From Candidatus Hodarchaeota archaeon (GTDB lineage Archaea; Asgardarchaeota; Lokiarchaeia; Sigyniarchaeales; SOKP01): a stretch of 64,000 nucleotides of DNA. The position numbers were made by a program, and so were the translations under genes. Shown piece after piece: positions 39,593 through 61,410 of this stretch. The stretch spans positions 199,532 through 263,531 of the forward strand of contig JBHLKM010000002.1 of the NCBI GenBank assembly GCA_048886685.1, in the 5' to 3' direction. The notes under the pieces are model-generated. The model was not told the DNA's origin, did no database searches, and was given only the letters and a program-made list of their open reading frames with translations. The first letter of the stretch is position 1. Each line of letters opens with the position of its first letter.

Positions 39593-39680
39593 GCAACTTA
39601 AAAATCATTCAATAAACATCTAACAGTTTCAAAAACATACAGTTTTGTATAAAAATTAAGAGGTGGATGTGTAAAAGTAG

Positions 39681-41624
39681 ATGAATAATAAAGAAAATCA
39701 TCGGATTGGATACTATGCTTGTCAATGAGGTGTAAATATAAGAACTAAGGTAGATTGCGATGAATTAACTAATTATGTTAAGAGTCTTGGAGATGAAATT
39801 ATAATTTCGAAGAAAAACCCATTTCTATGAACTGATAATGCTCAAAATGAAATTATAGAGGACATCAAAGAAAAGAATTTAAATAGAATTGTAGCGTCCG
39901 CTTGAACTCCGCGTACACATGAGGTGATTTATAGAGGTACTATTGCTAAAACGGATTTAAATCCTTATTATTTTCAAATGGTAAATGTTCGGGAACATTG
40001 TTCTTGGTGTACAGATACTAAAGAAGAAGCTACAGAAAAGGCAAAAGTTTTAGTAAAAAGTGGCATTGAAAGAGCCAAGCGATTGGAACCTGTTCCTATT
40101 AAAACTGTTCCCGTCACTAAAGCCACTTTAGTTGTTGGAGGTGGGATAGGAGGTATGAATGCAGCTCTAGATTTAGCGAACCAAGGTATTAAAGTTTACT
40201 TAGTCGATATTAAAACAACAATCGGAGGAAGAATGGCTCAATTGGACAGAACCTTTCCAACAGACGACTGTGCGATATGAATCTGCGGTCCAAAAATGCT
40301 TGAAGTTAATAGAAATGAGAATATAGAATTATTAACATATTCTGAAGTAAAAAAAATTGAAGGATACGTTGGTAATTATAAGGTAACTATTGAGAAGAAA
40401 CCACGATACACAACTGATGAATGTAATGGTTGTGGTGCTTGCGCTGAAGTCTGTCCAGTTTATACAACGAATTATTTTGATGAGCATCTAGGTGCACGAA
40501 GAGCAATAGATATTCCATTTGGTCAGGCAGTCCCGTTTCTATATGATATTGATCGAAATGCATGTGTTGAGTGTTTTTCATGTGTAGACGCTTGTGAATT
40601 GGATGCTATTGATTTTAGCCAGGAACCTACAGAACTTAATGTTGAGGTTGGTACAATCATTATAGCGACTGGTTGGGATATACATGAACCTTTTGGCGAA
40701 TACGGATATGGAGAATTCGAAAATGTGATTACTCAAGCTCAACTAGAACGAATTTTAGCTCCAAACGGACCACTTGAAGGCCACGTACATCGAATTTCGG
40801 ATAATAAGAAACCTAAGGAAATTGTTTTCATTCAATGTGTCGGTAGTAGAGAAGAGGATAGGACTTACTGCAGCGGAGTGTGTTGCATGCTTGCTTTAAA
40901 GAATGGACGATTGCTTTTAGAAGAATTTCCTGATGCAAACATTACAATCTGTTATATTGACATAAGAACTCCTGAAAAAGGATTTGAAGAATACTATGAA
41001 CGAGCTAAAGATGCTGGTATTAGATTGATACGAGGGAAAGTAGGTGAAATTTCTGAAGATCCAGAAACAAAGAACGTGAAAGTTCGAGTATATTCAACAT
41101 TAACAGATAAAATTGTAAAAATTGATGCTGATTTAGTTGTGTTATCCACAGCAGCAATCCCTTCAAAAGGTACTCAACAGATTGTAGAACTTTTAAATCT
41201 TGATACTAATACTTATGGCTTTCTAACAGAATCACATTTCGGATTAATGCCCCAAGAAACTAAGTCAAAAGGCATTTTTATAGCTGGATTTGCTCAAGGA
41301 CCGAAAAATATTTCTTATTCCGTTTCTCAAGCTAGAGCCGCTGCTAGTAAAGTAGCGGAATTAACATCACCTGGAGAAATAGATATTGAACTAATTACTG
41401 CTGAAGTTGATAGCGATTTTTGTATCTCCTGTCGACGATGCGAAAAAGAATGCCCTAAAAATGCCATCAAGATTGAAGAAGACATCGGAGCGTTCATTGA
41501 TGAGATAAATTGCGATGGATGCGGTATCTGTGCTACATGCTGTCCTACTCAGGCAATTGATATAAGGTATTATCGAGATCATCAATTATTTGCAGAAATT
41601 GATGGAATTTTAGGAGGTGGTTAA
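39681..41624 (+). CDS. hdrA: Selenocysteine-containing heterodisulfide reductase subunit A (647 aa; Sec at codons 16, 50, 75 and 200)
   Basis: One frame from ATG 39681 to TAA 41624 with TGA at 39726, 39828, 39903 and 40278. Contexts CQUG, FLUT, SAUTPRTHE and DCAIUICGPK match CHCG, YSCS, ASCTPRTHE and DCSLCILAPK in the Cys paralogues of this window. Joins ORF-track fragments 39924-40280 and 40296-41624. Confidence 0.93.
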
Positions 41625-41627
41625 ACA

Positions 41628-42101
41628 ATGGACAACTATAATTATAAAATTGTTGCTTTTGCTTGTTTAAAATGAGGTTATAGCGCAGCGGATTTAGCAG
41701 GTGTTTCACGAATGAAATACCCTTCTTCCATAAAAATAATTAAAGTTCGTTGTACAGGAAGAGTAGATTTGAAACATATACTTTATAGCATTAAATCTGG
41801 GGCGGATGGTGTAATGCTTGCTGGTTGAAGACCCAGTGAATGCCAGTATAAAAACGGTAATTTCACGGCTAATAAACATGTCGAATTCGCAAATAGAATT
41901 TTAGAATCTAGAGGCTTCGGAAATCAAAGAATTAACATGTATTGGTTAAGTGGAGCAGAGTCAGAAAAATTTGTAAGAAGTGTAGAAGATGCTTTAGAAA
42001 AGGTAAAATCTGTTGGACCAAGCCCAATTAATTTAGTAAAACAAGAAGCAGAAATAGAAGCTAAAGAAACAAAACAAGCTATAACTACCCCTGCAGAATG
42101 A
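41628..42101 (+). CDS. vhuD: Selenocysteine-containing MvhD/VhuD [2Fe-2S] subunit (157 aa; Sec at codons 16 and 67)
   Basis: MDNYNYKIVAFACLKUGYSAADLAGVSRMKYP...VRCTGRVD...GVMLAGURPSECQY. TGA at 41673 and 41826 align with Cys of FLCNWCSY and LGCHPGDC in the MvhD paralogues. SD GGAGGTGG upstream. Missing from the ORF track. Confidence 0.93.
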
Positions 42102-42146
42102 ATCTTATAAAAAACTTTAGTTATAGGATGACTTACCTTGCGAGGG
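42088..42146 (+). ncRNA. Eukaryote-like SECIS element (cis-acting mRNA structure)
   Basis: Lower stem CCCUGCAG / CUUGCGAGGG. Core AUGA (42098-42101) opposite UGA (42129-42131). Upper stem AUCUUAUAA / UUAUAGGAU. A-rich apical loop AAAACUUUAG. Confidence 0.85.
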
Positions 42147-42184
42147 AAGGGGTCTTAAAATAGTATTCAATTAAAATAAAAAAT

Positions 42185-43714
42185 TTGTTAAATGGAAAAA
42201 TCCAAAAGGATGAGAATATGGTTCAAATTTCAAATAATGTATCTTTCAATGGAATATCCCCAAAAAATCTAATGGATGCAACATATAAAGCCATTAAAAA
42301 TTTTCAAATTCGAGCGTTCTTCGAAGCTAAAGATGAAATTTTAGAAATAGGTAAATATTCTGAAGAAGAATTTTATAAAATATTAGATGCCATGATAGAT
42401 GCTGAAACAGAGCGTAAATTAGTACTGGAGTCTTTAAGGGGTAAGGAACCGTTATTTTTAGAGGAAATTGCAAAAATTCTAAAAGACTTTCCGGCAGAAC
42501 ATGTAATTCGTGATATAATTTACCTAAAAGAACAGGGATATATTGAAGAACATATTGAAATAAAAACTAAAATAGTTATCAAGAAAATAAAGGGAGAAGA
42601 AAAAGAAGTCGAGGAACAAGAATATTTCTACAGATATCAAGTAAAAGATATACCCGAGGATTTCATTGAACATTTTTTTGAACCTGTCTCTATTGTCTTC
42701 GATTCTGAAGTATGCTGTCAATGTGGTTGGTGTTCATCTATTTGTCCTGTAAATGCCATTACAGTCACAGCAGATACTTTAGAGATCGATGATGAGACTT
42801 GTATGAAATGTGGGATCTGTTATTCTGTTTGCCCGAGATCATTTTCAATTGAACAAGCGGGTAAAAGCATAAATAAGCTTGATAAATCTTTAAAATTCTC
42901 AGAAAAAATTAATGGTTATATTAATACCTATTCTGCCTCCACCACTAAAAATGAAATTAAAAAAGTTCGACAAGATGGGGGAATTGTTACTTCTTTACTT
43001 GAATACTTACTCAAGAATAAATTAGTTGATGCAATTATAGCTGTAAAACATTCAAAGGACCTATGGAAACCAGAGCCAGTAATAGTAGAAGATGTTAAAG
43101 ATTTATACAAAACAAGTGGTACTAAATACGCTAATGCCTCAACTTTAAATATCATTGATGAAACGAAAAAGTACGAAAACATAGCAGTCGTAGGAGTTCC
43201 TTGTATGATGAATGCATTAAAAAAAGGGTATTTATTTCCAAGCGGACAACCTTTTTTCAAAAACATTAGCTATAGAATAGGGCTTTTCTGCATGGAATCT
43301 TTTCCCTATGAAGGAGTGCTTAAATTAATTAAAGATCAATTTGATAAAGATTTTAATAAAGTTACTAAAATGGATATAAGTGGGGGTAAATTTATTATAT
43401 ATTTAGATTCGGGTGAGGATTTAAGAGTACCCTTAAACGATGTTAAATCCTATGCACGCCATAATTGTCATTTTTGTGAGGATTTGACTGCCGATTATGC
43501 TGATATTTCTGTAGGATCGATTGGGTCTCCTAGTGGTTGGTCTACAGTAATTACGCGAAATGAAAAAGGTGATAAAATCTATAAAGACGCAATTAAAGCA
43601 GGATTAATTGAATCTAAAAGCTTAAAGGAGGTAAAACCAGGACAACCCTTATTAGAAAGGATTGCTGGTACAAAAAGAAAAAATTGTAAACCCATTAAAT
43701 TGGGACAAGAATAA
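42185..43714 (+). CDS. FrhB-family protein with N-terminal helical/wHTH module and ferredoxin domain
   Basis: CCQCGWCSSICP, CMKCGICYSVCP, QDGGIVT, VGVPC, IGLFCME, CHFCED...ADISVGSIG. The start may be the ATG at 42218. Confidence 0.88.
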   Translation: MLNGKIQKDENMVQISNNVSFNGISPKNLMDATYKAIKNFQIRAFFEAKDEILEIGKYSEEEFYKILDAMIDAETERKLVLESLRGKEPLFLEEIAKILKDFPAEHVIRDIIYLKEQGYIEEHIEIKTKIVIKKIKGEEKEVEEQEYFYRYQVKDIPEDFIEHFFEPVSIVFDSEVCCQCGWCSSICPVNAITVTADTLEIDDETCMKCGICYSVCPRSFSIEQAGKSINKLDKSLKFSEKINGYINTYSASTTKNEIKKVRQDGGIVTSLLEYLLKNKLVDAIIAVKHSKDLWKPEPVIVEDVKDLYKTSGTKYANASTLNIIDETKKYENIAVVGVPCMMNALKKGYLFPSGQPFFKNISYRIGLFCMESFPYEGVLKLIKDQFDKDFNKVTKMDISGGKFIIYLDSGEDLRVPLNDVKSYARHNCHFCEDLTADYADISVGSIGSPSGWSTVITRNEKGDKIYKDAIKAGLIESKSLKEVKPGQPLLERIAGTKRKNCKPIKLGQE

Positions 43715-43732
43715 TAATAACAAAGAATTATT

Positions 43733-44833
43733 ATGAGTGTAAAATCTTTTCAAAATTTAATAAAAGAAGTTCATGAGAAAGGAATTTGTCAAGAATGCGG
43801 AGGTTGCGTAAGTTTTTGTAGTTCGGTTGATTATAATGTTATAGGATTTAAAGAACCTTACTCACCTCCAGAATATATTAATAAAGATGCGTGTCTTGAA
43901 TGTGGTATTTGTTATTATCTATGTCCTCAAACTCACATATTAGACGATGAACTTAATAAAACTTATAAATTTATAGATTTTAAATCAATGCCACTTGGTT
44001 ATTTCGAAGACATATATTCTTGCCAATCCACTGATCCTGATTTTCTAAAATATGGAACTGATGGTGGAGTAGTGAATTCAATAATTAATTATATGTTAGA
44101 AAAGAAATTAATTGATGGAGCAATAGTTGCTAAAATTCAGGGTCCTTTTTCAAAAGAAGCTATGTTTGCTGGTGATAAAAAAGATTTAATTAAAGGTTCT
44201 GGGACAAAACTTGAAATATCGACACAGTTAGATGAGATACAGAATTTTTGTACGTATACTCGCTCCATCCCAGAATTAAACCGTTACAAATTTAAAAAAT
44301 TAGCAATAGTAGGGACGCCCTGTCAAATTTATACCATCAGGTGTATGCAAAATTTAGGGGTTACTCCTTCAGAATATATAGAAATATGTTTAGGATTATT
44401 TTGTTATCATAATTTCCTTTTTGATAAAGCTCAAATAGAAAAATTTGAAAAAGACTTTGATGTAAAATTTGAAGATATCACAAAAATAAACATTAAGGAA
44501 GATCTTATTTTAAAAATTGGCACAGATGGGAGAGTAGTACATATTCCCTTCGATAAAATAGTAGATTATGTACGTCCCGCTTGCTTTAGTTGTGCTGATT
44601 TCACCAATGTGTATTCAGACATTTCTTTTGGAGGACTTGGATCTCCAGATAAGTATACTACAGTAATTCCCCGTACTGAAAAAGGACGTAAATTATTTCA
44701 TAAAGTTCTGGATGATCAACTTATCAAAAAATTAGTACTTGATGCTCCTGAAAAAAGTAAAATGAAAGAACGAATAACAAAATTCTCTCATTCGAAAATG
44801 GAGAGGGAACTAAGTTTTGTAAAAAATTTATAG
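43733..44833 (+). CDS. FrhB/FdhB-family protein with N-terminal ferredoxin
   Basis: CQECGGCVSFC, CLECGICYYLCP, TDGGVV, VGTPCQ, LGLFC, CFSCADF...SDISFG. Confidence 0.88.
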   Translation: MSVKSFQNLIKEVHEKGICQECGGCVSFCSSVDYNVIGFKEPYSPPEYINKDACLECGICYYLCPQTHILDDELNKTYKFIDFKSMPLGYFEDIYSCQSTDPDFLKYGTDGGVVNSIINYMLEKKLIDGAIVAKIQGPFSKEAMFAGDKKDLIKGSGTKLEISTQLDEIQNFCTYTRSIPELNRYKFKKLAIVGTPCQIYTIRCMQNLGVTPSEYIEICLGLFCYHNFLFDKAQIEKFEKDFDVKFEDITKINIKEDLILKIGTDGRVVHIPFDKIVDYVRPACFSCADFTNVYSDISFGGLGSPDKYTTVIPRTEKGRKLFHKVLDDQLIKKLVLDAPEKSKMKERITKFSHSKMERELSFVKNL

Positions 44834-44840
44834 TAAGGGT

Positions 44841-46097
44841 GTGAGATATCTGACCGAGTTGAAACAACCCAGTAAAAGTGATCAAGAAACTGATGAAATT
44901 CAAGTTTTTTTAGATAAAATATATGAAACTGATTTAAGACATTTATTGAAAAAATGTTATCAATGCGCACGATGCTCAGGTGTATGTCAAATTAGTAAGG
45001 TTCAGAAATTTACACCTAGTAGGATCATCCAAATGATTTTGGAGGGATTTGAAGACGAAATAATTGATAATGGAGTATTATGGGAATGTTTGACCTGTAA
45101 TAGTTGTCTCCAAGACTGTCCTAAAAATATAAATTTTGCAGATATTGCTCGGATTCTAAGATATAAAATGAGAAATAAGGGTATTCATAACCTTGAGAGA
45201 GCGGTTGCTCATAAAGGAATTTATCCTACAATGGGTGAATTGATGAGTCAAGATTATATTAATATCAATCGTCCTTTAGATTGGATCCCTAAAGGTTGTA
45301 AGATTGCAGATAAAGGTGAAATCTTATATTACGTTGGATGTTTGCCATTTTTCGATTATGATTTTCAGAATCTCAAGCCTATCTCATCAAGTACTTTAAA
45401 AACTATATGTAAAATTGAAAATGAACCAATTGTCGTACTTAAAGAAGAGACTTGTTGTGGACATGATTTATATTGGGGGCAAGGAAAATTTGAAGTTTTT
45501 ATTGAGTTAGCTAAGAAAAATCGAGAAAAATTTGAAAAAGCAGGCATATCAACAATAATTACTGCTTGTGCGGAATGCTACAGAACATTCAAGGTTGATT
45601 ATGCGAATTTATTTGATGATTTCAATAAAAGGTTTGATGTTCAACATATTATTGAATATGTATATGATAAGTGGAAACAAGGGAAGATCGATTTTAAAAA
45701 ACCTAATGAAAAATATAAGAAAACCACTTTTACGTTTCACGATCCCTGTAGATTAAGTAGATTTTTACCAACAGAAAACAACCTGGTAAAGAATTTAAGA
45801 GAAATTTTTAATTATCTACAGAATTTGGGGTATAATTTTAAAGAAATGAAACATAATCAAGAAAATTCCCTATGCTGCGGAGTTAGTTCTTGGTTAAATT
45901 GTAATGAGCGCTCTAAAGCATTGCGATACACCCGAATCTTAGAGGCAAAAGAGGTTGCTACTCAAGTATATACATCTTGTCCTAAATGTAACGTTCATTT
46001 GAATTGTATTAAAAAAGATTATGAGGATATTTCTTCGGTAGAAATTTCAGATCTTTCAGAATTTCTCGCAGATATAATAAAAATTGTAAAAAGTTAG
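44841..46097 (+). CDS. HdrD-like Fe-S oxidoreductase (HdrC-like 2x[4Fe-4S] plus two CCG domains)
   Basis: CYQCARCSGVC, CLTCNSCLQDCP, YYVGC, ETCCG, TACAEC, HDPC, LCCG, TSCPKC. Confidence 0.88.
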   Translation: MRYLTELKQPSKSDQETDEIQVFLDKIYETDLRHLLKKCYQCARCSGVCQISKVQKFTPSRIIQMILEGFEDEIIDNGVLWECLTCNSCLQDCPKNINFADIARILRYKMRNKGIHNLERAVAHKGIYPTMGELMSQDYININRPLDWIPKGCKIADKGEILYYVGCLPFFDYDFQNLKPISSSTLKTICKIENEPIVVLKEETCCGHDLYWGQGKFEVFIELAKKNREKFEKAGISTIITACAECYRTFKVDYANLFDDFNKRFDVQHIIEYVYDKWKQGKIDFKKPNEKYKKTTFTFHDPCRLSRFLPTENNLVKNLREIFNYLQNLGYNFKEMKHNQENSLCCGVSSWLNCNERSKALRYTRILEAKEVATQVYTSCPKCNVHLNCIKKDYEDISSVEISDLSEFLADIIKIVKS

Positions 46098-46120: not shown

Positions 46121-49100
46121 ATGGAAGGATCTGTGTTAGTAATTGGAGGAGGTATTGCAGGGATCCAAGCTTCTTTAGATTTAACGGAGATGGGATTTAA
46201 AGTTTATCTAGTAGAAAAAACTCCTTCTATTGGAGGTAGAATGGCTCAACTCGATAAAACATTTCCTACTTTAGATTGTAGTTTATGCATATTGGCACCT
46301 AAAATGGTTGAAGTTTTCAGAAATCCTAATATCGAACTAATGACTTATCATGAAGTTAAAGAGGTTACTGGTAAAGCTGGAGATTTTAAGGTTACTGTTC
46401 TTAAGAGACCTCGTTTTGTTGATGAGACAAAATGCAAAGGATGTGGGGATTGTACCACTAGATGCCCAAAGATCGAAGCCCCAAATATTTTTGACATGAA
46501 TCTGGGAAAAAGAAAATCAATATACATCCCATTTCCTCAAGCAGTTCCACCAGTTTATTTGATTGATCCTGATATGTGTTTAAAATTGACGAGGGATGTA
46601 TGTGGTGTCTGTGAAAAAGTTTGTGAAGCAAAAGCTATAGATTTCACACAAAAAACTCAAGAAATTCAAATAAGTGTTGGAGCGATAGTAGTTGCTACTG
46701 GATTTGATATGGCTAGAGATGGTTTATCATCAAGATGGGGCATTGATTATGATAATGTAGTGACTGCATTAGAGTATGAAAGAATTCTATGTGCTTCTGG
46801 ACCATTTGGGGGGCATGTTTTACGCCCGAGTGATAAGGAAGAGCCAGAAAAGATAGCATTTATTCAATGTGCTGGATCAAGAGACTTGCATGAAAGAATT
46901 CCCTATTGTTCCAGCGTATGTTGTATGTATACGAGTAAAGAAGCCATAATCACTAAGGAACACTCTGATCAGTCACAATGTTTTGTTTTTAGACATGATA
47001 TTAGAGCCTATGGGAAAAATTTCTATGAATTTACCCAGAGAGCCCAAAATGAATATGGTGTGAATTATTTTCACACTAAAATTAGTAAGATTAAAGAAGA
47101 TCCTGAGAATAATGATCTGATTATACACTATGAAGATTTACAATCAGGTTTACTTAATAATTTTCGAGCAAATTTAGTCGTCTTGGCAACACCCTTGGTC
47201 CCTTCTAAGGGAACTGAAGAATTAGCAAAGATTTTAGATATCGAATTAGATGACTATAACTTTTTTAAGGAGAAATCACATTTTACTAAATCGAGATCCT
47301 CGAAAAAAGGTATTTTTTTAGCAGGATTTTGCCAAGGACCTATGGATATACCTGAAACTGTGGCTGATGCCAGTGGAGTGGCTTCCCAAGTAGCAGTTCT
47401 ACTTAGTTCCGTTAAATTTACTGAGACCAAAGAAAAAATAATAGAAGTGCCAGAAAAAGAGGTAAAAATAACAGATGACCCGAGAATTGGGGTACTAATT
47501 TGTCATTGTGGAATTAACATAGGAAAATATATCGATATTCCAAAAGTTATTGAATATATAAAGAATTTGCCTAATGTGGTTTTTTGTGAAGATAATTTGT
47601 ATTCTTGCAGTTCCGATTCTCAAGAAAGAATTAAGGAAGTAATAAACGAATTTAATTTAAATAGGTTTGTTGTAGCATCGTGTACTCCACGAACTCATGA
47701 ATCCTTATTCCAAGAGACCTGTCAAGAAGCAGGATTGAATAAATACTTGTTTCAAATGGCTAACATTAGGGACCAGTGTTCTTGGGTTCATATGGAACAA
47801 CCAGAAGAAGCTACGCAAAAAGCAAAAGATCTAATTGAAATGGCTGTTGCTAAATCCAGATTATTTAAACCCCAAGAAGAACAGACATTATCCATGACTC
47901 CCAAAGCATTAATTATTGGTGGGGGTATATCTGGAATGACTGCCGCGTTAAATATTGCTAATCAAGGATTTAATGTCTACCTTATAGAAAAAGAGAACAG
48001 GTTAGGGGGATTATTAAATGATTTATATCTCTTATATCCCACTCAAGAAGATTCTTCAACATTTTTAAAGAGGATAATAGAAGATACTACCAAAAATAAA
48101 AACATCCAGATATGTTTAGAATCAAAAGTAAAAGATGTTAAAGGATATATAGGTAATTATGATATCTCCATTGTTAACTCCAAAAAAGAAATTACCGAAT
48201 TTAAAGTGGGTGTTATTATTGTTGCTACTGGGGGAAAAGAATTAAAACCTATTGGATATCCGCAATATAATGATAAAAATCAAAATGTAATAACTCAATT
48301 AGAACTGGAACGGAAATTAAAAGCTGAAGATTTATCATGGCTTGACAAGATCAAACGCATTACGACTATCTTGTGTGTTAGAGCTAGAGAAGTAAAAGGA
48401 ATTACATATTGTTCAAATGTGTGTTGTGCAATATCTATTAAAAACTTAAATATTCTTAAGGAATTAAAGCCAGATCTTGAAATAATTGTTCTTTACAGAG
48501 ATTTTCAAATGGCCAAAAAAGAATTTGAAGAATATTTCTTTGATAGAAGGAAGGATGCAATTCTTCTGAGATATAATTTAAATAAACCACCAGATATTAA
48601 AAAAATTGGTAATAAACCCGAGAAATATGGAATAAAGGTATTCGATACTAATTTACAAGATGATATCAATTTTGAAACAGATATGATTATCTTATCTCCT
48701 CCTATGAGTCCTCCAGAAAATTCAGAAGAATTAGCAAAAATGCTTAAAGTACCTTTAGACCATCAAGGCTTTTTCTTAGAAGCTCATGCTAAATTAAGAC
48801 CTGTAGATTTCGCAACAGATGGAGTATTTTTATGTGGATGTGCCCATTGGCCAAAACATATTCAAGAATCAATTACTCAGGCAAATGGAGCAGCAGGAAG
48901 AGCAAGCAGATTTTTGAGTTCAGAAGATATTATTGCATCGGGTTTAGTATCAGAGGTGGATGATGAATTATGTATCGGATGTGGTGTTTGCGTGAAACTT
49001 TGTCCTTATAATGCAATATCGAAGAATGAACAAGAGGTAGCGGTTGTTAACAAACTCATGTGCAAAGGATGTGGAGTTTGTGGTGCTAGTTGTCCTGAAA

Positions 49101-49171
49101 ATGCGATAACTGTACATCATTTTACAGACGACCAAATCTTATCAGAAATTATTGTATACGGAGGAGATTAA
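46121..49171 (+). CDS. hdrA: Large HdrA-family flavoprotein (two FAD-binding modules, Cys form)
   Basis: GGGIAG, LDKTFPTLDCSLC, QCAGSR...CSSVCC, ICHCGINIG, SCTPRTHE, second GGGISG, EAHAKLRPVDF and a terminal ferredoxin. Confidence 0.92.
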   Translation: MEGSVLVIGGGIAGIQASLDLTEMGFKVYLVEKTPSIGGRMAQLDKTFPTLDCSLCILAPKMVEVFRNPNIELMTYHEVKEVTGKAGDFKVTVLKRPRFVDETKCKGCGDCTTRCPKIEAPNIFDMNLGKRKSIYIPFPQAVPPVYLIDPDMCLKLTRDVCGVCEKVCEAKAIDFTQKTQEIQISVGAIVVATGFDMARDGLSSRWGIDYDNVVTALEYERILCASGPFGGHVLRPSDKEEPEKIAFIQCAGSRDLHERIPYCSSVCCMYTSKEAIITKEHSDQSQCFVFRHDIRAYGKNFYEFTQRAQNEYGVNYFHTKISKIKEDPENNDLIIHYEDLQSGLLNNFRANLVVLATPLVPSKGTEELAKILDIELDDYNFFKEKSHFTKSRSSKKGIFLAGFCQGPMDIPETVADASGVASQVAVLLSSVKFTETKEKIIEVPEKEVKITDDPRIGVLICHCGINIGKYIDIPKVIEYIKNLPNVVFCEDNLYSCSSDSQERIKEVINEFNLNRFVVASCTPRTHESLFQETCQEAGLNKYLFQMANIRDQCSWVHMEQPEEATQKAKDLIEMAVAKSRLFKPQEEQTLSMTPKALIIGGGISGMTAALNIANQGFNVYLIEKENRLGGLLNDLYLLYPTQEDSSTFLKRIIEDTTKNKNIQICLESKVKDVKGYIGNYDISIVNSKKEITEFKVGVIIVATGGKELKPIGYPQYNDKNQNVITQLELERKLKAEDLSWLDKIKRITTILCVRAREVKGITYCSNVCCAISIKNLNILKELKPDLEIIVLYRDFQMAKKEFEEYFFDRRKDAILLRYNLNKPPDIKKIGNKPEKYGIKVFDTNLQDDINFETDMIILSPPMSPPENSEELAKMLKVPLDHQGFFLEAHAKLRPVDFATDGVFLCGCAHWPKHIQESITQANGAAGRASRFLSSEDIIASGLVSEVDDELCIGCGVCVKLCPYNAISKNEQEVAVVNKLMCKGCGVCGASCPENAITVHHFTDDQILSEIIVYGGD

Positions 49172-49175
49172 TTAT

Positions 49176-49949
49176 ATGAATTTCACCCCAAAAATTTTAG
49201 GATTTTTATGTAATTGGTGCTCTTATGCTGGAGCAGATCTTGCTGGGGTAAGTCGAATTCAATACTCTCCTAATATTAGGATAGTAAGGGTTATGTGCAG
49301 TGGAAGAGTTGATCCTATATTTATTGCTGAAGCACTCTCAAGAAATATTGATGGAGTACTTGTTTTAGGATGTCATCCTGGAGACTGCCATTATATCAGC
49401 GGTAATTATGAAGCAGAGATAAAAATGAAGATGCTAACTAAATTATTGAAAATAATTGGGTTTTCTGAACGTTTAAGGTTGGATTGGGTTTCTGCTGCTG
49501 AAGGAAATAGATTTGCTCAACTAGTAAATGAATTTACTGAGCATATTAAAAATTTGGGTCCAAATCTGGTTAGAGACAAAAAATTAAAAAATAAATTAAT
49601 ATCCGATTTTGATGCTATAAAATCTGTATTGAAAGATTCAAGACTTAGAATTCTAGTTGGTAGAGAAAGAAAAATCATTAATGAAGGTAATGCATATAAC
49701 GAGAAAATCCCATTAGAGAAATTTGAACAAATTCTTGACGATGCCATTCAGAATGAATTTGAACGTCATAAAATATTACAAATAATTTCTGAAAATGGTA
49801 AATCCGTACCAGAAATCTCTAAAGAAGTTCAACTTCCCCCAAATAATGTGCTAAATCATATTGTTTCCTTAAGACAAAGAGGGTTGGTCGATTTACACGA
49901 GCTGAATGAAGAAATACCCCTATTTATATCAATTAACGAGGGCAAATAA
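49176..49949 (+). CDS. mvhD: MvhD-family subunit (Cys form) with C-terminal helical/wHTH extension
   Basis: GFLCNWCSYAGADLAG, VMCSGRVD, GCHPGDCHY, WVSAAEG. The ATG at 49176 follows SD GGAGG. Confidence 0.9.
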   Translation: MNFTPKILGFLCNWCSYAGADLAGVSRIQYSPNIRIVRVMCSGRVDPIFIAEALSRNIDGVLVLGCHPGDCHYISGNYEAEIKMKMLTKLLKIIGFSERLRLDWVSAAEGNRFAQLVNEFTEHIKNLGPNLVRDKKLKNKLISDFDAIKSVLKDSRLRILVGRERKIINEGNAYNEKIPLEKFEQILDDAIQNEFERHKILQIISENGKSVPEISKEVQLPPNNVLNHIVSLRQRGLVDLHELNEEIPLFISINEGK

Positions 49950-52900
49950 TGGAAAAAGTTGGTGCAGTACTGGTTGTTGGTGGAGGCATAGCAGGTATTC
50001 AAGCATCCATTGATTTGGCAGATTCAGGTTATAAAGTATATATAGTAGAATCGTCTATGAGTATCGGTGGGGTTATGTCACAGCTAGATAAAACCTTTCC
50101 TACTAATGATTGTGCTATATGTATCCTTGCCCCAAAATTAGTGCTTACGGGTCGTCATGAAAATATAGAAATAATAATAAATTCATCTATAGAAAAAATC
50201 GAAGGAGAACCAGGAAATTTTAATGTGGATATTATCCAAAAATCGCTTTATTTAGATCAAAATAAATGTACTGGATGTGGTGTGTGTGCCCAAAAATGCC
50301 CCATTGAAGCTATTGATTTCTTCAATGAAGGATTTTCTAAAAAATCAGCAATATCTGTAAAATTTCCACAAGCAGTTCCATTAGTTTTCTCAATAGATAA
50401 AGAAAAATGTATAGGATGTGAAGTTTGTAAAGAAATTTGTAAAGCAAATGCCATAGATTATGAGCTTAGAGATAAGAAAATAAATCTCAAGGTAGGAGCA
50501 GTAATTTTAGCAATTGGTTTTGATGAATTTGAACCTTCTCCTTTAATAAATATTGGCTACGATAAATACTTGAATGTCATAACGAGTATTGAATTTGAAC
50601 GTACGTTAAGTGCTAGCGGACCTCACTCAGGTTTAATTCTCCGTCCTTCTGATGGAATTATTCCAAAAAAAATAGCTTTCTTACAATGCATCGGTTCAAG
50701 GGATAAAAGTATTAATGCTGAATATTGTTCTTCAGTATGTTGTATGTATACCACAAAAGAAGCAGTAATTGCAAAAGAACATGTGAATTTTATAGAACCT
50801 ACGATCTTTGCAATGGATATAAGAGCATATGGTAAAGATTTTGATAAATATATTGAACGGGCAAAGAATGAACATGGCATACGATATATTAGAAGAAGGA
50901 TTTCAACTATTAGTGAAATTCCAGATTCAAAAGATTTAAAGATTCGATATGAAACAGATGATGGGAAAGTCATTGAAGAAATTTTTAATTTAGTTGTTCT
51001 TGCTGTAGGAGCACAATCTAATAAGAGTTCTATAGAATTAGCTCAAAAGTTAAATATAGAGTTAAATGAATATGGTTTCTGCAAAACAAAAAGTTTTAAT
51101 CCGGTAGAAACATCAAAACCTGGAATCTATGTATGTGGAATGTTTGCCTCACCTAAGGATATCCCAGAAACTGTCATCGAAGCTAGTGCTGCTGCTGGAT
51201 GCGTTAATGTTTTGCTAACAGAAGTAAGAAATACATTAATCTCAAAGAAAGAACTCCCAGAAGAAATTGATGTGAGTGAACAGCCACCAAAAATAGGGGT
51301 CTTTATATGTCATTGTGGAATTAATATTGGGGGGGTTGTTAACGTTCCTGAGATTGTCGAATATGTAAAAACATTACCTAATGTAGTATATGCTGAACAT
51401 AATCTATACACTTGTTCCGCTGATACTCAAACGAATATTAAAGAAAAAATAACAGAAAATCAGCTTAATAGAGTAATAGTTGCTTCATGTACTCCAAGAA
51501 CGCACGAACCCTTATTTCAAGCAACAATACAGGAGGTAGGATTGAATAAGTATCTTTTTGAGATGGTGAATATCAGAGATCAATGCTCTTGGGTTCATAT
51601 GCATGAAGCTGAAAATGCAACATCAAAAGCAAAAGATTTACTAAGAATGTCAGTAGCTAAAGCTGCACAGTTAATTCCATTACAAGAACAAGAAATTGAT
51701 GTAATCGACAAAAGTTTAGTCATTGGTGGGGGTGTATCTGGAATGATTTCAGCTTTAAATTTGGCTTCTCAAGGTTTTGAAGTATTCTTAATTGAAAAAG
51801 AAGATTCTCTAGGAGGATTTGTCAAGAATATTTTCCAAACCCTTGAAAATGACGATATTCAAGAATTTATTATCAACCTAATACAAGAGGTTGAAAATAA
51901 TCAGTTAATTCAAGTATTTAAAAAAGCTCAAATTAATTCAATTTCAGGATACATCGGCAATTTCACCACAAATATATCTTATGGGAAAAATAATAAAATT
52001 ATTGATCTTGAACACGGAATAATTATTGTGGCTACAGGCGCAAAAGAATACCAACCAAATGAATACAATTATGGACAAGATCAGAGAATTATATCTCAAG
52101 TTGAATTTGAAAAAACCCTTTTTACTACAAATGAAGTAAAAAAATTGAATTTAATCACAATGATACAATGTATTGGTTCTAGAAATGAAGATCATCCCTA
52201 TTGTAGCAGAATATGTTGTTCTGAAGCCATAAAGAATGCATTAAAAGCAAAAGAAATCAACCCAAATCTTGAAATAATTATTTTATATCGTGATATTCGT
52301 ACATATGGATTCAAGGAGAAATATTACAATCTGGCTAGAGAAAAAGGAGTCATTTTCATTAGATTTGATGAAAATAAACCCCCAGAATTAAAAATAAAAA
52401 ATGAAAAGTTAAATCTTTTAGTTGAAAGACCCGATATAGGTAAATTGGAAATAAATCCAGAATTAATCGTTTTAAGTACAGGACTCGTAGCACCTATAAA
52501 AGAAAATGAAGATCTAGCAAAAATGCTAAAAGTTCCTCTTAATGAGGATAAATTCTTTCTCGAAGCTCATGTAAAATTAAGACCAATTGACTTTGCAACA
52601 GATGGTATCTTTTTATGTGGTTGTGCACACTCACCTAAAAATATTAGGGAATCTATTGCTCAAGCTAATGGAGCCGCTGCCCAAGCAGTTAAAGTTTTGG
52701 GTGCTAAAAAAATTGTAACATCCGGTCTTGTTGCTACTGTAATAGAAGATAATTGTATTGGATGTGGAAATTGTGTTGAAGTTTGCCAATTTAATGCAAT
52801 AGAATTAGTAGAACAACAAAAAGAGTTCGAAGATTGCACAATTACAATAAAAAAATCTCATGTTAATTCAGCATTATGTAAAGGTTGCGGGACATGTGGA

Positions 52901-52984
52901 GCTCAATGCCCAAATTCTACAATTATTATAAAACATTTTGGATTCGAGCAAATAAGTGCCATGATTTCTGCTCTTTTAGTCTAA
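49949..52984 (+). CDS. hdrA: Large HdrA-family flavoprotein (Cys form)
   Basis: Same double-FAD architecture as 46121-49171. TAATG stop/start coupling with the upstream mvhD. Confidence 0.92.
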   Translation: MEKVGAVLVVGGGIAGIQASIDLADSGYKVYIVESSMSIGGVMSQLDKTFPTNDCAICILAPKLVLTGRHENIEIIINSSIEKIEGEPGNFNVDIIQKSLYLDQNKCTGCGVCAQKCPIEAIDFFNEGFSKKSAISVKFPQAVPLVFSIDKEKCIGCEVCKEICKANAIDYELRDKKINLKVGAVILAIGFDEFEPSPLINIGYDKYLNVITSIEFERTLSASGPHSGLILRPSDGIIPKKIAFLQCIGSRDKSINAEYCSSVCCMYTTKEAVIAKEHVNFIEPTIFAMDIRAYGKDFDKYIERAKNEHGIRYIRRRISTISEIPDSKDLKIRYETDDGKVIEEIFNLVVLAVGAQSNKSSIELAQKLNIELNEYGFCKTKSFNPVETSKPGIYVCGMFASPKDIPETVIEASAAAGCVNVLLTEVRNTLISKKELPEEIDVSEQPPKIGVFICHCGINIGGVVNVPEIVEYVKTLPNVVYAEHNLYTCSADTQTNIKEKITENQLNRVIVASCTPRTHEPLFQATIQEVGLNKYLFEMVNIRDQCSWVHMHEAENATSKAKDLLRMSVAKAAQLIPLQEQEIDVIDKSLVIGGGVSGMISALNLASQGFEVFLIEKEDSLGGFVKNIFQTLENDDIQEFIINLIQEVENNQLIQVFKKAQINSISGYIGNFTTNISYGKNNKIIDLEHGIIIVATGAKEYQPNEYNYGQDQRIISQVEFEKTLFTTNEVKKLNLITMIQCIGSRNEDHPYCSRICCSEAIKNALKAKEINPNLEIIILYRDIRTYGFKEKYYNLAREKGVIFIRFDENKPPELKIKNEKLNLLVERPDIGKLEINPELIVLSTGLVAPIKENEDLAKMLKVPLNEDKFFLEAHVKLRPIDFATDGIFLCGCAHSPKNIRESIAQANGAAAQAVKVLGAKKIVTSGLVATVIEDNCIGCGNCVEVCQFNAIELVEQQKEFEDCTITIKKSHVNSALCKGCGTCGAQCPNSTIIIKHFGFEQISAMISALLV

Positions 52985-58329: not shown

Positions 58330-61300
58330 ATGGAAGGTTCTGTATTAGTTATTGGAGGAGGGATTGCTGGAATACAAACTTCTTTAGATTTAACTGAATT
58401 GGGTTTTAAAGTATATTTAGTGGAAAAAACTCCTTCTATTGGAGGGAGAATGGCTCAACTTGATAAAACCTTTCCTACTAACGATTGTAGTCTATGCATT
58501 CTTGCTCCTAAGATGGTAGAAGTATTCAGAAATCCTAATATTGAGTTAATGACATATCATGAAGTCCAAAAGGTCACTGGAAAACCTGGAAATTTTATTG
58601 TCTCAGTATTAAAGAAGCCTCGTTATGTTGATGAGACTAAATGTAAAGGTTGTGGGGATTGTGCTTCCAAATGCCCGAAGATCGAAACGCCTAATATCTT
58701 TGATATGAACTTAGGTAAGAGAAAATCAGTTTATATTCCATTTCCTCAAGCTGTTCCCCCTGTTTATATAATCGATCCTGATTTGTGTTTATTTTTAAAC
58801 AAAGGAGTTTGCGGTGTTTGTAAAAAAACATGTGAAGCAGATGCAATAGATTTTGAACAGAAGTCATTAGAAATTGAATTAAATGTTGGAGCCATTGTTG
58901 TGGCGACTGGTTATGATATACTTGGTGAGGAGTTATCTTCAAGATGGGGTTATAATTATAAGAATGTAGTCAATGCTTTAGAATACGAAAGAATGTTATC
59001 TGCTTCAGGCCCTTTTGGAGGGCATATTTTACGTCCGAGCGATGAGAAAGAGCCAGAAAAAATAGCATTCATTCAATGTGCTGGCTCAAGAGACCTACAT
59101 GAAGGAGTTCCCTATTGTTCCAGCGTATGTTGTATGTATACGAGTAAAGAAGCCATAATCACTAAGGAGCACTCTGACCATTCCCAATGCTTTGTTTTTA
59201 GACATGATATTAGAGCATTTGGAAAGAATTTTTATGAATTCACTCAAAGGGCTCAAGAAGAATATGGTGTAAAATATTTTCAGACCAAAGTGAATAGAAT
59301 CTTAGAAGATCCAGAAACAAATGATCTAATTATTCATTATGAAGACCTAAAAACTGGAGAATTTAAGGACTTTAAAGCAAATTTGGTAGTATTAGCTTCA
59401 CCATTAGTCCCCTCAAATGGAACCAGAAAATTAGCTGAAATTTTAGATATTGAATTAGATGATTATAGCTTCTTCAAAGAAAAAACTTACTTCAACAAAT
59501 CTTTATCTTCGAGAGAAGGTATCTTCTTAGCTGGATTTTGTCAAGGCCCAATGGATATACCAGAGACTGTCGCTGATGCTAGTGGTGTAGCTTCGCAGAT
59601 CGCAACTTTACTAAATCCCTCCAAATTTACAGAAATTGAAGAAAAGATATTTGAGATTCCCGAGAAAGAAGTAAAGACTACAGATGATCGGAGAATTGGT
59701 GTACTTATTTGCCATTGTGGAATTAATATTGGAAAATATATCAATATTCCTGAAGTCATCGAACATATAAAGACATTGCCTAATGTAGTCTTTTGTGAAG
59801 ATAATCTTTATTCTTGTAGTTCTGATTCTCAACAACGAATTAAGGAAGTAATTGCGGAATATAACTTAAATAGATTTATTGTAGCATCTTGTACACCGCG
59901 AACCCATGAATCTCTATTTCAAGAAACATGTCAAGAAGCAGGGCTAAATAAATATCTCTTTGAGATGGTTAATATTCGAGATCAGTGTTCTTGGGTTCAT
60001 ATGACAGAAAAAGAAAAAGCTACCGAAAAGGCAAAGGATCTAATAAGAATGGGAGTTGCAAAGTCAAGGTTATTAAGACCTCAATCAGAGGAAAAACTGC
60101 AAATCACTCAAACTGCTTTGGTAATTGGTGGCGGTGTATCTGGGATGAGTGCCGCCTTAAATATTGCTAACCAAGGATTCATAGTTTATCTTGTAGAAAA
60201 AGAGAAATTTCTAGGTGGAAATCTCAAAAACTTAAATGTATTATATCCAACTCAAGAAGATGCTTCAATCTTACTAAATGAAATTATAGAAAAGGTTATG
60301 AAAAATAGGAATATTCAACTTCTCCTAAGCTCTCAATTGAAAGATGTTAATGGTTATATTGGAAATTACAACGTTACTGTCGTCGATTCAGAAAATGAAA
60401 GCCACGATTTAAAAATTGGCACTATAATAGTTGCTACTGGAGGACAAGAACTAAAACCTAAAGAAGTTTTTCAATATAAACTTAAGAACCATAATGTAAT
60501 TACGCAATTAGAATTAGAACAGAAATTGAAAAGTGAAGATGTGTCTTGGCTTGATAAGATTAATCGTATTACATCAATGTTATGTGTCAACGCAAGGCAA
60601 AAAGAAGGAATTACATACTGTTCTAATATATGTTGTGGAAGCGCTATTAAGAACATTAATATTTTAAAAGAATTGAAAAATGACCTCGAATTAGTAGTTC
60701 TTTATCGAGATCTCCAAATGGCAAAAAAACAATTTGAGGAATATTATCGCGATCGGAGAAAAGATGCGATATTCTTAAGATATGATTTAGATAAACCCCC
60801 ATTCATTAGTACGAAGAATGGCAAATCGGAAAAGTACGAAATTAAAGTATTTGATACTAATTTACAAGATTACCTCACATTTGAAACAGATTTAATAGTA
60901 TTATCAACTCCTATGATCCCAGCTAGTAATTTAGAAGAACTAGCAAAAATGCTCAAAGTTCCTCTAGATAAAAATGGTTTTTTCTTAGAGGCTCATGTCA
61001 AATTAAGACCATTAGATTTTGCCACAGATGGGATTTTCTTATGCGGATGTGCTCAGTGGCCAAAAAATATTCAAGATTCTATATCACAAGCAAATGGTGC
61101 TGCAGGAAGAGCAAGTAGATTCTTAAGTGCAAAAGAAATTACAACTTCTGGTTTAGTAGCAGAAGTAGATCAAGATATGTGCATTGGATGTGGAACCTGT
61201 GAAGATGTTTGTGCTTATAATGCAGTAGAACTAACCGAAATAATAAAAGAATTTGAAGATGTGAGTTTAGTCATAAAAAAATCTTCCATCAATCCAAATT

Positions 61301-61410
61301 TATGTAAAGGGTGTGGAACTTGTGCCGCAAATTGTCCAATTGGGGCAATTTCTGTAAAACACTACGACTTTGAGCAAATTAATGCTTTAATTAGGGCATT
61401 AGTAATTTAA
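58330..61410 (+). CDS. hdrA: Large HdrA-family flavoprotein (Cys form), close paralogue of 46121-49171
   Basis: Same motifs, with long near-identical protein stretches shared with 46121-49171. Confidence 0.92.
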   Translation: MEGSVLVIGGGIAGIQTSLDLTELGFKVYLVEKTPSIGGRMAQLDKTFPTNDCSLCILAPKMVEVFRNPNIELMTYHEVQKVTGKPGNFIVSVLKKPRYVDETKCKGCGDCASKCPKIETPNIFDMNLGKRKSVYIPFPQAVPPVYIIDPDLCLFLNKGVCGVCKKTCEADAIDFEQKSLEIELNVGAIVVATGYDILGEELSSRWGYNYKNVVNALEYERMLSASGPFGGHILRPSDEKEPEKIAFIQCAGSRDLHEGVPYCSSVCCMYTSKEAIITKEHSDHSQCFVFRHDIRAFGKNFYEFTQRAQEEYGVKYFQTKVNRILEDPETNDLIIHYEDLKTGEFKDFKANLVVLASPLVPSNGTRKLAEILDIELDDYSFFKEKTYFNKSLSSREGIFLAGFCQGPMDIPETVADASGVASQIATLLNPSKFTEIEEKIFEIPEKEVKTTDDRRIGVLICHCGINIGKYINIPEVIEHIKTLPNVVFCEDNLYSCSSDSQQRIKEVIAEYNLNRFIVASCTPRTHESLFQETCQEAGLNKYLFEMVNIRDQCSWVHMTEKEKATEKAKDLIRMGVAKSRLLRPQSEEKLQITQTALVIGGGVSGMSAALNIANQGFIVYLVEKEKFLGGNLKNLNVLYPTQEDASILLNEIIEKVMKNRNIQLLLSSQLKDVNGYIGNYNVTVVDSENESHDLKIGTIIVATGGQELKPKEVFQYKLKNHNVITQLELEQKLKSEDVSWLDKINRITSMLCVNARQKEGITYCSNICCGSAIKNINILKELKNDLELVVLYRDLQMAKKQFEEYYRDRRKDAIFLRYDLDKPPFISTKNGKSEKYEIKVFDTNLQDYLTFETDLIVLSTPMIPASNLEELAKMLKVPLDKNGFFLEAHVKLRPLDFATDGIFLCGCAQWPKNIQDSISQANGAAGRASRFLSAKEITTSGLVAEVDQDMCIGCGTCEDVCAYNAVELTEIIKEFEDVSLVIKKSSINPNLCKGCGTCAANCPIGAISVKHYDFEQINALIRALVI

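Follow-up and report, generated by a model that had tools for sequence, protein, structure and literature searches.

We found that hdrA, an HdrA-family gene at 39681..41624 (+ strand) of the 64,000-nt stretch of archaeal DNA analysed here (the window), is very probably a working selenoprotein gene rather than a pseudogene. It would form a translationally coupled selenocysteine (Sec) pair with the adjacent vhuD, sharing one lokiSECIS element, and its product would most likely belong to a bifurcating complex. The analysis shows how the gene is built, that it is conserved and under selection, that the genome encodes Sec machinery and that the SECIS covaries; selenium insertion itself, the use of one SECIS by both cistrons and Se-Fe ligation are inferred.

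Translation of 39681-41624 on the forward strand with TGA read as Sec (U) yielded a single frame of 647 codons, with four in-frame TGA, a final TAA and no further stop. This bears out the frame that a sequence-only reading of this DNA had claimed, with TGA at 39726, 39828, 39903 and 40278. A Shine-Dalgarno-like GAGGTGG, read from the sequence, lies 14 nt 5' of the hdrA ATG (39660..39666, + strand), and the start codon is matched by ten orthologues, each opening M-x-x-x-(E/Q)-N-H-R-I-G-Y-Y. The four UGA codons, all on the + strand, are Sec16 (39726..39728) in the context C-Q-U-G, Sec50 (39828..39830) in F-L-U-T, Sec75 (39903..39905) in S-A-U-T-P-R-T-H-E, and Sec200 (40278..40280) in D-D-C-A-I-U. 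Sec16 takes the place of the second Cys of the C-x-C-G motif in the N-terminal HA3 domain, and Sec200 is the canonical HdrA Sec, whose counterparts are Cys197 in M. wolfeii and Sec197 in M. maripaludis. The sequence-only reading had placed each TGA at a Cys position of the paralogues in the window, and the motifs that it quoted (CHCG, YSCS/YTCS, ASCTPRTHE and DCSLCI/DCAICI) are indeed present in three fused HdrA proteins (46121-49171, 49949-52984 and 58330-61410). It had also called four random nonsense hits at Cys implausible. Our chance estimates agree, with P ~6e-6 for four random positions all falling on Cys columns and P ~1e-4 for four single-base nonsense changes all at Cys codons.

Aligned to its homologues, the read-through protein proved to be a full-length HdrA, an outcome in line with the same reading. 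The alignments run end to end with solved HdrA (9sfi, E 2.5e-202, residues 7-645; 5odc, E 1.1e-193), and those to 9sfi, 5odc, 8rvu and 7bkb (E 1e-160 to 2.5e-202) recover the four-domain HdrA architecture: an N-terminal MvhD-like Fe-S domain, an FAD-binding thioredoxin-reductase domain, an inserted ferredoxin and a C-terminal ferredoxin. Pfam matches consisted of Pyr_redox_2 and two Fer4 diclusters. The FAD-binding Rossmann fold spans residues 149-241, and the C-x-x-C/U pair next to FAD is present as D-D-C197-A-I-U200. In five solved HdrA structures the four TGA codons correspond to Cys columns, of which the fourth is a Sec (X) in M. maripaludis HdrA (9sfi), the DCxxU position at which the sequence-only reading had placed the Sec of methanococcal HdrA. 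Positions 14, 16, 50 and 75 were Cys or Sec in every homologue compared. Despite strong matches, the protein missed the NCBIfam equivalog cut-offs (NF040770, 774 vs 1100 bits; NF041778, 614 vs 1400 bits), both models being ~770 positions long and covered by the match only to about position 650. Identity with the methanogen CoB-CoM enzyme is thus not established, and we assign the protein to the HdrA family, not to proven CoB-CoM reductases.

The sequence-only reading had further pointed to the fate of the TGA codons in related genomes and to the Sec machinery as decisive, and both favour a selenoprotein. Orthologues of hdrA occur in 16 other genomes of the same genus, with 88-93% protein identity and four TGA each (five in one genome). 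TGA stands at exactly codons 16, 50, 75 and 200 in all ten intact orthologous loci, which have no frameshifts and no other stops, and whose hdrA stop is invariably TAA or TAG. Among these ten orthologues codons 1-199 gave a dN/dS of 0.055, with dS of ~1.2 indicating that synonymous sites are saturated, and codons 201-647 one of 0.040. The in-frame UGA of hdrA stand at Cys columns and are kept as UGA in orthologues under purifying selection, as expected of a selenoprotein gene. No hdrA TGA varied in the contigs of three sediment-metagenome runs, which belong to a single study and are probably the source sample rather than independent data. Among the public runs listed for this stretch, none was an RNA run. 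In a set of 40 sampled Sec-type paralogues from related genomes, five from this genome and nine further orthologues, position 200 was always Sec and positions 14 and 197 never were, and positions 16, 50 and 75 were Sec in varying combinations.

These data bear on two readings in which no selenoprotein of full length is made. Standard gene calling splits hdrA, calling only the ORFs 39924-40280 and 40296-41624, as would be expected if four nonsense mutations had inactivated a former Cys-type hdrA. Such decay is so improbable as to be negligible: all four TGA are invariant in ten orthologues despite a dS of ~1.2, the codons before the last TGA are under strong constraint with neither frameshifts nor other stops, and both the complete set of Sec genes and a conserved SECIS are present. 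The orthologue invariance and the purifying selection refute the pseudogene. Alternatively, only the 442-residue C-terminal ORF (40296-41624, from Met206) might be made, the upstream part being an untranslated leader. This ORF begins with ATG, and HdrA classes without the N-terminal domain exist. A product of this kind is nevertheless extremely improbable, and we rejected it, since codons 1-199 are selected like the rest, a ribosome-binding site lies 5' of codon 1, and a start at Met206 would cut the Rossmann fold and lose the C-x-x-U pair.

Genes for a predicted complete Sec machinery were found in the genome, comprising tRNA-Sec, a PSTK-like kinase, SepSecS, SelD and archaeal SelB (aSelB). 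SepSecS scored 482.8 bits, above its cut-off, and is located ~200 nt from the tRNA-Sec gene. Two Sec-type SelD genes are present, with one TGA in each. The PSTK-like kinase reached 136 bits against a cut-off of 290 for TIGR03574, yet displayed the KTI12/PSTK fold at E 2.3e-39. The SelB matched 4ac9 at E 5.5e-90 and includes the aSelB_III domain. Stop-codon recoding has reportedly been discussed for some Asgard lineages in one study, which counts in favour of near-cognate decoding or local recoding that would place Cys or Trp, both standard amino acids, at the UGA here. We consider this highly improbable. TGA is an ordinary stop in 6 of the 48 window ORFs of at least 100 aa, including those at 18208 and 26633 that the sequence-only reading had cited against genome-wide recoding, and it terminates vhuD itself; a general recoding is therefore rejected. 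Moreover, the genome has dedicated Sec genes, every hdrA locus with UGA is followed by a conserved SECIS, and the UGA are confined to Cys columns, which is the classic signature of Sec/Cys exchange.

The second gene of the selenoprotein pair is vhuD/mvhD (PF02662 FlpD; 41628..42101, + strand), which has 157 codons and ends in a UGA stop at 42099-42101. Only 3 nt separate the hdrA stop from the vhuD ATG, and a ribosome-binding site, GGAGGTG (41613..41619, + strand), lies within the hdrA 3' end, 8 nt before that ATG. VhuD matched PF02662 at E 9.6e-44 and displayed the conserved five-Cys FlpD pattern. Its two in-frame UGA on the + strand, Sec16 (41673-41675) and Sec67 (41826-41828), align with both Sec residues (X) in VhuD from M. 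maripaludis (9sfi_K). The gene is kept in the orthologous loci, and standard gene calling missed it entirely. Neither this co-translated gene with two Sec nor the shared SECIS figured in the sequence-only reading. Downstream of vhuD on the + strand are a ferredoxin-FrhB fusion (42218-43714), an FrhB-like gene (43733-44833) and a gene for a fused HdrC/HdrB-like CCG protein (44841-46097). These same-strand genes in 42218..46097 are likely candidate partners of HdrA-VhuD.

A eukaryote-like lokiSECIS is located at 42098..42131 (+ strand), identified by recurrence and covariation. On that strand it consists of an AUGA core (42098-42101) that contains the vhuD stop, a 9-bp stem (42102-42110 paired with 42121-42129), an A-rich apical loop of 10 nt (42111-42120) that reads AAAACUUUAG, and a 3' GA (42130-42131). 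It agrees with the lokiSECIS of Mariotti (2016), which has AUGA, a 9-bp stem, an apical loop of ~11 nt that begins with a run of A and a 3' GA (or AA), near the end of the coding sequence, and the element is single and found only after vhuD. From 30 nt before vhuD to ~400 nt past it, our scan returned this one perfect-stem SECIS and two weak one-mismatch matches further downstream. The vhuD stop is UGA inside AUGA in all nine loci that reach the vhuD end, and the lokiSECIS of orthologues have apical loops of 10-11 nt. The motif recurs downstream of each of the five Sec-type hdrA loci in the genome, and a genome-wide search for the exact motif gave six matches, compared to 0-2 in shuffled sequences. 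The lokiSECIS of the C11 locus has, by eye, a one-base bulge in its 3' arm, and the strict motif scan misses it. Seven of the nine stem pairs displayed compensatory changes, and 96.6% of stem cells were paired against 43-62% in slid controls, a level reached by none of 500 shuffles. Meanwhile, the hairpin alone was no more stable than shuffles (-5.2 kcal/mol, z -0.8), and when 42095-42185 was folded whole the motif sat in a larger, insignificant structure. As the folding energy is unremarkable, support for the lokiSECIS comes from recurrence and covariation. No Rfam SECIS family was matched, either in the whole window at gathering thresholds or in 41600-42300 at E up to 10; two weak Rfam matches were unrelated sRNAs. 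The literature searched held no experimental test of lokiSECIS function; PMC9622424 cites Mariotti and contains no reporter test of the Loki SECIS in M. maripaludis.

Based on these findings, we postulate that hdrA and vhuD are expressed as a translationally coupled selenoprotein pair, in which six UGA (four in HdrA and two in VhuD) spread over 2.1 kb would be decoded by Sec-tRNA(Sec) via the archaeal SelB, whose gene lies at another place in the genome. One eukaryote-like SECIS, 272 to 2372 nt 3' of the six UGA, would signal for both cistrons. The UGA stop of vhuD would escape recoding by being too near the SECIS, and a UAA/UAG stop would spare hdrA from read-through. The full-length HdrA flavoprotein would most likely act in a flavin-based electron-bifurcating/confurcating complex together with VhuD and the FrhB-like and HdrBC-like neighbours. 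Within it, Sec200 would be the second residue of the C-x-x-C/U pair adjoining FAD, and Sec16, Sec50 and Sec75 would fill all but one of the four invariant Cys positions in the domain that carries HA3, the mobile [4Fe-4S] shuttle cluster. This placement suggests that both the shuttle cluster and the flavin docking site may be largely selenium-based.

A multi-Sec HdrA-VhuD arrangement is already known in kind. According to Mariotti et al. 2016 (PMC4989117), HdrA of Lokiarchaeota can have as many as four Sec, among which the canonical one near position 200 is never missing, and each HdrA-VhuD pair has six UGA and one SECIS. This settles, as to kind, the question raised by the sequence-only reading of whether a four-Sec pattern had been described. 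The Lokiarchaeota pairs of that paper share with ours Sec at conserved Cys columns, a two-Sec VhuD directly downstream on the same strand, an AUGA/9-bp stem/A-rich loop/GA SECIS solely after vhuD, a UGA span of ~2 kb, an hdrA stop that is always UAA/UAG, and a vhuD that may end in UGA. Nothing essential differs from the pairs as there described, the comparison covering features other than the exact set {16, 50, 75, 200}. The apical loop has 10 nt here, against 11 in the paper and in most orthologues, and the overlap of AUGA with the stop concerns vhuD here, whereas the paper is explicit about it only for VhuU.1. Asgard archaea have also been surveyed by Huang et al. 2024 (PMC11227280).

Outside this group, HdrA-VhuD of M. 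maripaludis (9sfi) has the same domain architecture, the same D-D-C-x-x-U Sec and the same two VhuD Sec positions. Methanococcal HdrA differs in its single Sec, with Cys at 16, 50 and 75, in its methanogen-type SECIS and in its known substrate, CoM-S-S-CoB. The HdrABC-MvhAGD complexes of Methanothermococcus (5odc) and Methanothermobacter marburgensis (8rvu, 9sw2) share every cofactor-binding Cys column, positions 14/16/50/75 and the 197/200 pair; unlike our protein, these enzymes are all-Cys and free of selenium, and they serve as the structural reference for Sec placement. The arrangement is also reminiscent of eukaryotic selenoprotein P, in which, as compared by Mariotti et al. 2016 (PMC4989117), several far-upstream UGA are decoded with a 3' AUGA/GA SECIS of the kink-turn type. 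Selenoprotein P, however, is a single cistron with two SECIS and needs SBP2, whereas here one SECIS would serve two cistrons; according to the same paper, no SBP2 is known in Lokiarchaeota.

The sequence-only reading had suggested that the three extra Sec of the N-terminal Fe-S domain might ligate its cluster, and this is plausible: by homologue comparison, the only invariant Cys of this domain are those at 14, 16, 50 and 75, and the extra Sec take up the last three. In our alignment, the M. wolfeii residues at these positions are Cys11, Cys13, Cys46 and Cys71, with Cys46 and Cys71 matching Sec50 and Sec75, and Cys197' matches Sec200'. The HA3 cluster was reportedly revealed by the 2017 structure (Wagner et al., 5ODC). 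We regard the chances as about even that the mobile HA3 [4Fe-4S] cluster is held mostly by selenolates, namely Sec16, Sec50, Sec75 and Sec200' of the partner protomer. For this we took the ligand set from the secondary literature (PMC9012536) and from conservation, not from coordinates. Cys197 is reported in the structural literature as a ligand of the N-terminal cluster, i.e. the fourth HA3 ligand, while the cryo-EM study of M. maripaludis assigned Sec197 to a Cys-Sec selenylsulfide relay and not to the cluster ligands. The latter agrees with a different role, in which the extra Sec would be free redox-active selenols instead of Fe-S ligands, connecting the mobile arm with FAD through selenylsulfide or diselenide relays. 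This we hold to be possible but rather unlikely. It draws on the selenylsulfide-like density at U197 of M. maripaludis HdrA, on the description of Cys202/Cys205 and MvhD Cys16 as 'additional' non-ligand cysteines, and on homology, as VhuD Sec16 here equals MvhD Cys16 and HdrA position 16 is homologous to it in the MvhD-like N-terminal domain. Mariotti et al. 2016 (PMC4989117) likewise described the extra Sec positions as non-ligands and proposed 'multiple catalytic Cys'. That statement, however, is older than the 2017 structure, and HA3 requires three or four protein ligands in a domain whose invariant Cys positions number only four, with Sec at three of them in our protein. Even with position 16 as a free relay residue, HA3 must therefore have two or more Sec among its ligands. 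Selenolate ligation and relay can hold together, with 16 and 200 as relay and 50 and 75 as ligands.

As a gene, this locus adds little, being a textbook Lokiarchaeota example of a multi-Sec HdrA-VhuD with a shared eukaryote-like SECIS. Since gene calling splits hdrA and misses vhuD, a full bifurcating module is lost when such MAGs are annotated and their metabolism is reconstructed. The structures obtained since 2016 change the non-ligand reading, as the extra Sec coincide with the HA3 domain, the Cys197/Cys200-type pair and MvhD Cys16. The part that these residues play as electrons pass from the hydrogenase arm to the flavin of bifurcation was still open in 2026, and cryo-EM papers of that year call the electron step from the MvhD/HA3 arm to FAD unresolved. 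The Se-ligated HA3 may be a new angle on a known gene arrangement; if true, nature would here have built a [4Fe-4S] cluster on three or more Se ligands. We also give roughly equal odds for and against the Sec/Cys pattern marking those residues by which the MvhD/HA3 arm and FAD dock with each other or exchange or relay electrons. The natural pattern of Sec/Cys substitution in this family offers comparative evidence on which of its residues are chemically active.

Translated with TGA read as selenocysteine (Sec, U), positions 39681-41624 (+) form a single unbroken frame of 647 residues that ends in TAA. The four in-frame TGA codons of this hdrA gene are codons 16, 50, 75 and 200 (39726, 39828, 39903 and 40278, + strand), and retranslation agreed in all details with the sequence-only reading that had proposed a four-Sec HdrA here. 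Under the standard code, only the fragments 39924-40280 and 40296-41624 are called. TGA terminates 6 of the 48 larger ORFs in the window (18208 and 26633 among them), bearing out its description as an ordinary stop, and the Cys-type motifs cited from paralogues were found in the window's three fused HdrA proteins. The probability that four random positions all fall on Cys columns is ~6e-6; for four nonsense changes all at Cys codons it is ~1e-4, a figure that allows for Cys codons being a single change away from TGA.

The read-through product aligned end to end with HdrA subunits of known structure, namely 9sfi (M. maripaludis, E 2.5e-202), 5odc (E 1.1e-193), 8rvu and 7bkb. As had been anticipated, the U columns of this full-length alignment hold Cys or Sec: Cys-type structures display Cys opposite all four U, and U200 is aligned to X (Sec) in the M. 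maripaludis chain of 9sfi. Pfam identified a FAD/Rossmann region and two ferredoxin diclusters. Because the NCBIfam HdrA and HdrA2 models scored under their equivalog cut-offs (E 1e-184 to 1e-232), the product is by its sequence an HdrA-family flavoprotein, not a proven CoB-CoM heterodisulfide reductase.

Among the 40 related genomes searched, 16 others of the same genus carry an hdrA orthologue (88-93% protein identity), each with four TGA codons, or five in one case; other stops occur only in one damaged copy. In the ten intact orthologous loci, TGA is invariant at codons 16, 50, 75 and 200, adjacent codons vary synonymously, and the hdrA stop is always TAA or TAG. Orthologue identity is ~82% for DNA against ~92% for protein, and codons 1-199 and 201-647 gave dN/dS values of 0.055 and 0.040, respectively (dS ~1.1-1.2). 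Since TGA is conserved and dN/dS is low, the region 5′ of the last UGA is translated and constrained. The signs of decay named in the sequence-only reading, other stops and relaxed dN/dS, were not seen in the intact loci. A pseudogene is ruled out by the invariant TGAs and the dN/dS of codons 1-199, and the constraint on these same codons rules out a product starting at Met206. One orthologue (L029, G009:C38) displayed a fifth in-frame TGA at codon 614, in the C-terminal ferredoxin motif, possibly the "fifth position" described by Mariotti et al. 2016. Another (L025, G018:C91) has TAA at codon 108 and ~40 additional bases in the alignment, which could reflect decay of this copy or an error in assembly.

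The follow-up also identified two elements absent from the original finding. Three bases past the hdrA stop, and with a GGAGGTG site ahead, lies vhuD (mvhD; 41628-42101, +; 157 codons; PF02662, E 9.6e-44), whose in-frame TGA codons 16 and 67 correspond to both Sec positions of M. maripaludis VhuD. Its stop is TGA, the UGA within the AUGA of a SECIS element, as in all nine orthologous loci whose sequence covers the 3′ end of vhuD. This element (42098-42131, +) consists of AUGA, directly followed by a perfect 9-bp stem with a 10-nt loop starting AAAA, and then GA, the motif layout of a eukaryote-like "lokiSECIS". No Rfam family matched it, and in folding the stability of the hairpin by itself was not unusual. 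Aligning 13 copies, orthologues and paralogues together, showed two-sided changes in 7 of the 9 stem pairs, and 96.6% of stem cells are paired versus 43-62% with a slid partner (0 of 500 shuffles as high). The motif lies 3′ of all five Sec-type hdrA loci of the genome, with a one-base bulge on contig C11, and a strict descriptor found six copies genome-wide versus 0-2 in shuffled sequence.

Directly 3′ of the stem, a block (G/A)A-C-(U/A)-(A/G/U)-A-C-C (42130-42137) is kept in 13 of 13 elements, paralogous ones included; A40, C41, C45 and C46 of the SECIS alignment (A1) are invariant and lie outside the published AUGA/GA core. This block might form a lower helix or be contacted by a protein. 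Two more perfect motifs of this type, at G000:C2:362283 (-) and G000:C13:55615 (+), probably mark other selenoprotein genes.

The genome (4.4 Mb, 47 contigs, 31% GC, from sediment metagenomes) encodes the Sec machinery that the four-Sec proposal called for. A tRNA-Sec gene lies ~200 nt from SepSecS (482.8 bits, above cut-off), and archaeal SelB, with an aSelB_III domain and 4ac9 as best match (E 5.5e-90), lies 4 kb beyond, all within 7 kb (G000:C1:219573-226340). A PSTK/KTI12-type kinase and two tandem selD genes with one in-frame TGA apiece (G000:C13:56676-58803) are also present. Collectively, the conserved TGAs, purifying selection and Sec machinery support the selenoprotein interpretation.

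In Mariotti et al. 2016 (PMC4989117), which describes the Lokiarchaeota hdrA-vhuD arrangement, vhuD is always directly downstream of hdrA, UGA is never the hdrA stop, and one lokiSECIS (9-bp stem, 11-nt loop, AUGA/GA core), only 3′ of vhuD, serves up to 6 UGA codons over ~2 kb. By that description, the present locus has the same arrangement, although its apical loop has 10 nt and not 11. Huang et al. 2024 (PMC11227280) extended the arrangement to 1439 Asgard selenoprotein sequences. Since these two studies already cover such loci, ours is a genuine selenoprotein locus that is known in kind, and its main interest lies in reinterpreting its Sec positions in the light of post-2017 structures.

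On the same strand, 3′ of the locus, are a ferredoxin-FrhB fusion, a second FrhB-like gene and a fused HdrC/HdrB-like CCG protein, and beyond these, three fused double-HdrA genes (46121-49171, 49949-52984 and 58330-61410; ~1010-1026 aa), each followed by an MvhD gene. In the encoded proteins, the C-x-x-C pair is in the first thioredoxin-reductase module, which lacks the N-terminal Fe-S domain, and the second module has the N-terminal domain (Cys 14, 16, 50, 75) without the C197/C200 pair, the same complementarity as in ANME HdrA3/HdrA4 (PMC9012536). Elsewhere in the genome, a second four-Sec HdrA paralogue (G000:C2:317948-319996, -; Sec 17, 201, 260, 297) has its own lokiSECIS (L030:55-105, -), with the stop codon provided by the AUGA, and is not followed by vhuD. 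Because Sec260 (C-x-x-C-x-x-C-x-x-x-U-P) and Sec297 (U-x-x-C-x-x-C-x-x-x-C-P) occupy canonical ferredoxin-motif positions, they should ligate one [4Fe-4S] cluster of an inserted ferredoxin domain; orthologues (80-84% identity) have Cys at both. Two HdrA paralogues from related genomes (L039 and L040; G021, G023) carry a single extra TGA, at columns 111 and 402, outside the five published Sec positions; column 402 lies at the Y-C-S-x-V-C-C Cys motif in the thioredoxin-reductase domain.

PMC4989117, which predates the HdrABC-MvhAGD structure, states that the additional Sec positions are not cluster ligands. According to PMC9012536, the N-terminal domain binds a [4Fe-4S] cluster, HA3, with ligands from both its own Cys residues and Cys197 of the partner HdrA, the latter being U200 in our alignment, and cryo-EM studies of 2026 describe HA3 as a mobile shuttle cluster. 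When five HdrA proteins of known structure are compared with every HdrA module of the genome that bears the N-terminal domain, only Cys positions 14, 16, 50 and 75 of this domain are invariant, while 26, 107 and 110 vary. The three extra Sec that the sequence-only reading placed in this Fe-S domain are thus three of its four invariant positions (16, 50, 75). Hence, whichever three or four of these bind HA3, at least two of its N-terminal ligands must, by alignment, be Sec, and U200 of the partner protomer would bring the selenolate ligands of the cluster to about three.

Related genomes supplied a sample of 40 more Sec-type paralogues, and every one of them has Sec at position 200 and Cys at positions 14 and 197. 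Meanwhile, positions 16, 50 and 75 are Sec in changing combinations, most frequently {16, 200}, the others being {16, 50, 200}, {16, 75, 200}, {50, 75, 200}, {50, 200}, {75, 200} and {200}. A free-selenol relay formed by positions 16 and 200 is a live alternative to cluster ligation. For the Sec positions together, we infer that selenium occupies the sites where the shuttle cluster is ligated or docks at the flavin, and this reading of them as HA3 ligand or docking residues is the one point that possibly goes beyond the literature.
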